From NCBI RefSeq assembly GCF_056712565.1, contig NZ_CM160072.1: 64,000 nt of DNA; one strand, 5' to 3'. Positions 22,303 through 22,788 of the stretch are shown one piece after another (within the stretch, counting starts at the first letter, position 1; each line of letters starts with the position of its first letter). Below the pieces are notes generated by a model. It ran no database searches. It was given only the letters and a program-made list of their open reading frames with translations, and was not told where the DNA came from. A program made the position numbers and the translations under genes.

Positions 22303-22788
<486 letters not shown>

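Follow-up and report, generated by a model that had tools for sequence, protein, structure and literature searches.

The short rpsG allele and its stop codon in a B2-type Escherichia coli, with a predicted RNA domain at the rpsG-fusA junction

Ribosomal protein uS7 of Escherichia coli occurs in two lengths, a difference between K and B strains that was seen by protein sequencing in the late 1970s and in sequence comparisons of the str operon in the 1980s and 1990s. The tagging of S7 by SsrA is reportedly the subject of a primary paper by Schaub and Hayes from 2011. The length polymorphism itself is already known and ordinary. The short form (S7B, WP_001138043.1, 156 aa) belongs to E. coli B and most E. 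coli, and WP_001138043.1 is the annotated rpsG product in REL606, UTI89, NCM3722, and WG1. The long form (S7K, b3341, NP_417800.1, 179 aa) belongs to K-12 MG1655, W3110, and EMG2. It has 23 extra residues, and its translation stops at a UGA 27 nt before fusA. In MG1655 the gene (NC_000913 3473542-3474081) is 540 nt long and annotated with a product of 179 aa, within the operon context rpsL-rpsG-fusA-tufA. The C-terminal extension is described as a mutation common to EMG2, MG1655, and W3110, which implies another "wild-type" branch of K-12 without it (PMC9997739). The paper also links SsrA tagging of S7 in K-12, by citation of other work, to the extension in combination with the weak RF2-Thr246 (PMC9997739). 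Baggett et al. (2017) do not mention rpsG. The consequences that the long allele would have for K-12 physiology (an extended protein, SsrA tagging) we infer or take from the literature.

The stretch analysed here, referred to as the window, is 64,000 nt of E. coli DNA (NCBI RefSeq assembly GCF_056712565.1, contig NZ_CM160072.1). According to the open reading frames and to colinearity with annotated MG1655, its rpsG sits between rpsL and fusA-tufA of the str operon, the same context as in MG1655. The features around the stop codon are the following:

20092..22206, minus strand: fusA (EF-G), which follows rpsG in the str operon, from the open reading frame list and colinear with MG1655 fusA
22207..22302, minus strand: rpsG-fusA intercistronic spacer of 96 nt, of which only 27 nt stay untranslated in K-12
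22234..22302, minus strand: 22 in-frame codons and a TGA beyond the rpsG stop, untranslated in the window; the C-terminal S7 extension in K-12 MG1655
22303..22305, minus strand: TAA stop of rpsG (UAA then U), with the diagnostic base at 22304
22303..22773, minus strand: rpsG, 30S ribosomal protein uS7 in its short 156-aa form, stop codon included, from the open reading frame list and its translation
22870..23244, minus strand: rpsL (S12), which opens the str operon, colinear with MG1655 rpsL

Read on the plus strand, positions 22303-22305 are TTA; on the minus strand they form the TAA that comes straight after the TGG of Trp156. The protein has 156 codons and ends in ...KAFAHYRW. The TAA after ...AHYRW was the starting observation of the original prediction, and the open reading frame and its translation bear it out at exactly these coordinates. 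The stop is a deterministic fact of the sequence, so a chance model does not apply. The TIGR01029 rpsG_bact equivalog profile matches the window S7 over its full length with 236.7 bits (cutoff 135.85), its positions 1-154 of 154 falling on residues 3-156, so that the end of the profile coincides with residue 156; PF00177 matches with 212.8 bits. The computed mass is about 17.5 kDa for the short form (17,473 Da without Met1) and about 19.9 kDa for the K-12 form (19,888 Da). Beyond the stop, the next stop in frame is the TGA at 22234-22236, and 27 nt separate it from the start codon of fusA, an ATG at 22204-22206. A promoter-like TTGACA-17-TAAAAT was picked up at 23347-23319, by rpsL, in a promoter and terminator scan.

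How does this locus compare with the described alleles? An alignment of 584 nt that takes in the whole of rpsG, the spacer, and the beginning of fusA shows a single base difference between the window and MG1655. This is plus-strand position 22304, T in the window and A in K-12, which makes codon 157 TAA in the window and TTA (Leu157) in MG1655. The first 156 residues of S7 are the same, the 96-nt spacer shows zero differences, and rpsG has no informative site between the two other than codon 157. The codons past the stop are those of the K-12 extension, and in the standard K-12 lineage the stop is replaced by a sense codon, both as the original prediction had stated. Its allele descriptions also prove right on alignment of rpsG with K-12 and B (TTA and 179 aa in MG1655, TAA and 156 aa in REL606). 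In the window, as in REL606, Trp156 is directly followed by the stop, the mark of the short B-type allele; the Leu codon that marks the EMG2/MG1655/W3110 lineage is missing. Protein and stop codon are the same as in E. coli B and most E. coli, and the short-S7 strains show no difference from the window at the rpsG locus.

The alleles do not divide cleanly into K-12 and the rest. In the K-12 strains NCM3722 (NZ_CP011495) and WG1 (NZ_CP099590), rpsG is 471 nt long, ends in TAA, and encodes 156 aa, and over the 584-nt rpsG region both strains are identical to the window; the S7 translations of NCM3722, WG1, and REL606 are identical to that of the window. Over about 30 kb, NCM3722 differs from MG1655 at 2 bases and WG1 at 1, codon 157 being among them in each. 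This "wild-type" branch shares the short rpsG allele with the window but is K-12 in the remaining region, from which the window diverges by about 2%. Since WG1 and NCM3722 carry TAA, the short allele excludes only the EMG2/MG1655/W3110 lineage. The original prediction had argued from the short allele to a strain that is not K-12, and had expected K-12 rpsG not to terminate at this codon; in the WG1/NCM3722 branch it does terminate there. The conclusion holds on the evidence of the remaining window, while the step that led to it goes too far.

The frequency of both alleles was determined among 5,426 complete E. coli genomes by megablast with 55-nt queries centred on the variable base, an arrangement in which every 28-nt seed contains that base. 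The TAA query matched 5,077 of the 5,426 genomes (about 94%) and the TTA query 348. Together these make 5,425, which equals the number of genomes that hold the rpsG locus. The one remaining complete genome gave no hit to the rpsG region, and among the 5,077 TAA matches one falls on a record described as a plasmid. At least 2 of the 5,077 TAA genomes have a K-12 background. From the 348 TTA carriers, 64 were inspected, as a spread sample of 60 by name and another 4 by sequence. Most of the 60 are recognisable K-12 laboratory strains, and the names include MG1655, BW25113, DH1, DH5alpha, HB101, MC4100, TG1, AB1157, and J53 transconjugants. The 4 carry misleading host labels (coffee plant, chicken, human/hospital patient, and lake water) and are 0-2 SNPs from MG1655 over 24 kb; for contrast, REL606, of phylogroup A, shows 198 SNPs to MG1655 over 50 kb. 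The carriers checked are read as K-12 laboratory derivatives, and a rare TTA strain outside K-12 may yet exist among the other carriers.

The treatment of the long allele in databases is uneven. In the re-annotated K-12 derivatives L011-L014, PGAP gives the TTA-bearing rpsG (468 nt, "incomplete; missing C-terminus") the status of a pseudogene, unlike NC_000913, which keeps the 179-aa coding sequence. An essential ribosomal protein gene is therefore marked as broken in those K-12 records:

11559-12026 of the locus in L011-L014 (K-12 derivatives): rpsG flagged as a pseudogene in the PGAP annotation

Which allele is ancestral, and does the stop in the window mark the true end of the protein? A DNA-pattern scan for the conserved end of rpsG, with one genome per species across many phyla, covered 120 species. 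In all 120 a stop follows HYRW directly (TAA in 84, TAG in 24, TGA in 12), so TAA is the ancestral state and TTA a stop loss within K-12, a polarity read from sequence comparison and in line with the published account (PMC9997739). In addition, PDB entries from other gammaproteobacteria contain S7 chains of 156-157 aa that align end to end. The opposite polarity, with an ancestral 179-aa form and the TAA of the window as a nonsense mutation that truncates S7, draws on the 22 downstream codons, which contain no in-frame stop and are 100% identical in the window and K-12. This conservation is better explained by RNA structure in the spacer (see below), the same spacer has stops in that frame in other genera, and the family profile ends where the short protein ends. 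With a stop at codon 157 in every one of the 120 species and TAA in the great majority of E. coli genomes, a truncation is extremely unlikely. The open frame, which extends over 22 codons in E. coli and Citrobacter, could also be read as a sign that the UAA is leaky and that a minor extended isoform of S7 is made by readthrough in the strain of the window. UAA followed by U is, however, regarded as the strongest termination signal in E. coli, in several other Enterobacterales the spacer has stops in this frame or a second TAA right behind the first, and no experimental evidence for such an isoform was found; readthrough on this account is very unlikely. The TAA of the window is almost certainly the ordinary, ancestral termination codon of rpsG in non-K-12 E. 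coli, and nothing contradicting this explanation was found. Ribosomes of the strain of the window would stop at UAA157-U and release the canonical 156-residue uS7, leaving the 96 nt after the UAA untranslated before fusA. In the lineage of EMG2, MG1655, and W3110, a single change from A to T turned UAA into UUA (Leu), and ribosomes of standard K-12 would read 23 further codons into the spacer to stop at UGA-A, 27 nt before fusA.

The remaining window identifies the background in which this short allele occurs. Compared with MG1655 it has 1,535 mismatches in 63,252 aligned columns (97.57% identity), including 9 bases in fusA, 6 in tufA, 8 in tusB, and 1 in rpsL among the neighbours of rpsG. The window lacks the 5.2-kb fructoselysine operon frlABCDR (K-12 3499691-3504934), and the flanks are joined at 48313-48344. 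Here yhfS comes straight after yhfL, an arrangement shared with UTI89 and a gene content that is not that of K-12. The segment from yhfS to yhfZ (48344-55895) is 94.9% identical to MG1655, compared with 97.5-98.7% elsewhere in the window, a divergence that suggests a different recombination history of this segment. The best matches of queries 1-24900 and 39500-64000, at about 100% identity, include S88, IHE3034, APEC O18, SF-468, ATCC 11775, and Z0117EC0054. We take S88, IHE3034, UTI89, APEC O1, APEC O18, SF-468, and ATCC 11775 to be of phylogroup B2 and ST95-type. Judged by these matches, the window is that of a B2, ST95-type E. coli of the extraintestinal-pathogen type, the MLST and Clermont marker genes lying outside the window. 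The claim that the strain is not K-12 is right because of the mismatches, the absence of frlABCDR, and the matches of about 100% to B2 genomes.

Could the window nevertheless belong to the WG1/NCM3722 branch of K-12? That branch has the short allele, its rpsG is annotated with 471 nt, and the 584-nt identity described above would fit. The window, though, has 528 mismatches to NCM3722 over 27,353 bases and about 600 to WG1 over 30 kb, whereas those strains are 1-2 bases from MG1655, and it is without the frl operon that MG1655 has. The few SNPs per 30 kb to K-12 reference DNA that would be expected of any K-12 strain are not what the window shows, and an origin in this branch is most improbable. 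For base 22304 to be a mistake of sequencing or assembly that hides a true TTA, only one base would have to be wrong, but the same base is present in 5,077 independent complete genomes, every close relative of the window included, and an error is vanishingly improbable. The preferred reading is that of a B2 genome with the ordinary short allele. Among its relatives, S88, IHE3034, SF-468, ATCC 11775, and Z0117EC0054 have the same gene order as the window. The related locus in UTI89 (NC_007946 3709001-3741000) is about 99.9% identical to the window, but in UTI89 the tuf gene behind fusA leads into secE-nusG-rplKAJL-rpoBC, as an inversion between tufA and tufB would produce. In the window the order is chiA-tufA-fusA, as in K-12, and the window is therefore not UTI89.

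Two other differences from MG1655 lie elsewhere in the window. In kefB, 72 bp between 11-nt direct repeats are deleted in frame, with the loss of K-12 residues about 164-187:

27493-29226, minus strand: kefB, 577 aa compared with 601, with the deletion junction at about 28727-28737

A 43-nt query across this junction found no match in the 5,426 complete E. coli genomes, near-identical B2 genomes included, and S88, IHE3034, SF-468, ATCC 11775, and Z0117EC0054 are without the deletion; the exact source is therefore not in this collection, and the deletion is either unique to the source strain or an artefact of assembly. In the gspI region of the cryptic type II secretion cluster, at about 10847, an 18-bp insertion (AAGAGTTAATAAATGGCG) is present relative to MG1655. 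The AAGAGTTAATAAATGGCG insertion is shared with the B2 genomes named above, which match at 100%.

The spacer between rpsG and fusA is 78-100 nt long in 34 Enterobacterales species, of which 30 were aligned; an endosymbiont locus that is without the box described below was left out of the alignment. Except in this endosymbiont, the spacers keep UCCCUUCGG directly after the stop, near-invariant, together with a central GC-rich hairpin, an invariant GAACG box, and the Shine-Dalgarno sequence of fusA. GAACG is invariant in all 30 aligned spacers. The elements of the predicted fold are located in the window as follows:

22244..22288, minus strand: central GC-rich hairpin in the spacer, from minimum-free-energy folds
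22320..22327, minus strand: 5' arm of the predicted long-range helix, GGCGUUCG, in rpsG codons K149-A152, from an RNAalifold prediction
22229..22236, minus strand: 3' arm of the predicted long-range helix, the UGAACGCC box, which holds the TGA used as the K-12 rpsG stop

RNAalifold returned no structure on the MAFFT alignment of 30 sequences, because the hairpins of Photorhabdus and Xenorhabdus, which have stems of other sequence at the position of the central hairpin, are out of register. The covariation analyses were restricted to 23 alignable species. In these, the central hairpin shows compensatory changes in 5 of its 9 core pairs. For the hairpin stem and the long-range helix combined, 97.7% of cells are paired, compared with 32-51% in slid controls, and the covariation score was reached by none of 500 shuffles. 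In the RNAalifold prediction the helix consists of 8 pairs between GGCGUUCG and UGAACGCC, essentially all of which persist in the 23 sequences (98.4% of cells). The helix does not vary among the 23 species and so offers no covariation. Of 13 Ala codons in this part of rpsG, Ala150 GCG alone stays unchanged across 35 species, and the endosymbiont, without the box, also has AAA GCA instead of AAG GCG. The invariance of this codon and the change at these codons in the endosymbiont may be seen as indirect support, on the level of sequence, for the predicted helix.

Single-sequence folding points in the same direction. The spacer folded alone gives weak z-scores (-1.3 to -2.9), and the signal becomes clear once the 3' end of rpsG is included: a 151-nt fold that contains the long-range helix has a predicted energy of -53.5 kcal/mol (z = -3.67), none of 200 shuffles being as stable. 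In this fold, a small hairpin carries the UAA stop in its loop. A wobble-tolerant search for partners of the rpsG 3' arm picked up GGGCGCU inside the central hairpin and was discarded as too permissive. An attenuator or terminator reading of the central hairpin was rejected for want of a U-run, and the promoter and terminator scan found no intrinsic terminator in the spacer. A scan of positions 18000-26000 with Rfam 15 in E-value mode gave nothing in the spacer and three sub-threshold hits near 25.3 kb. No description of a spacer structure was found in the open-access literature searched.

From these predictions, the junction at 22204-22338 on the minus strand appears to form an RNA domain that is conserved across Enterobacterales. 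Translational coupling of rpsG to fusA is established (PMC10931766), and it is plausible, as an inference from that coupling, that the domain in the spacer mediates it. We advance with considerable doubt, and as a tentative model, the fuller proposal that a long-range helix of 8-9 bp closes a domain of two elements, the hairpin with the UAA in its loop and the covarying GC hairpin, that this domain could underlie the coupling of rpsG to fusA, and that K-12 would be an atypical model for it. In K-12 the UGA stop lies inside the box, and ribosomes translating the extension would melt the whole domain.

Codon 157 of rpsG is a one-directional marker. TTA points to the lineage of EMG2, MG1655, and W3110, while TAA points to anything else, WG1 and NCM3722 included. 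The short allele in the window confirms only that it is not standard laboratory K-12, which matters little. Of practical relevance is that the K-12 allele is handled as a pseudogene by automated annotation. If the predicted domain is real, the 96-nt spacer would not be neutral, and K-12 would translate through the domain and terminate inside the box. A structured rpsG-fusA junction, again if true, could bear on how the synthesis of EF-G is coupled to that of S7.
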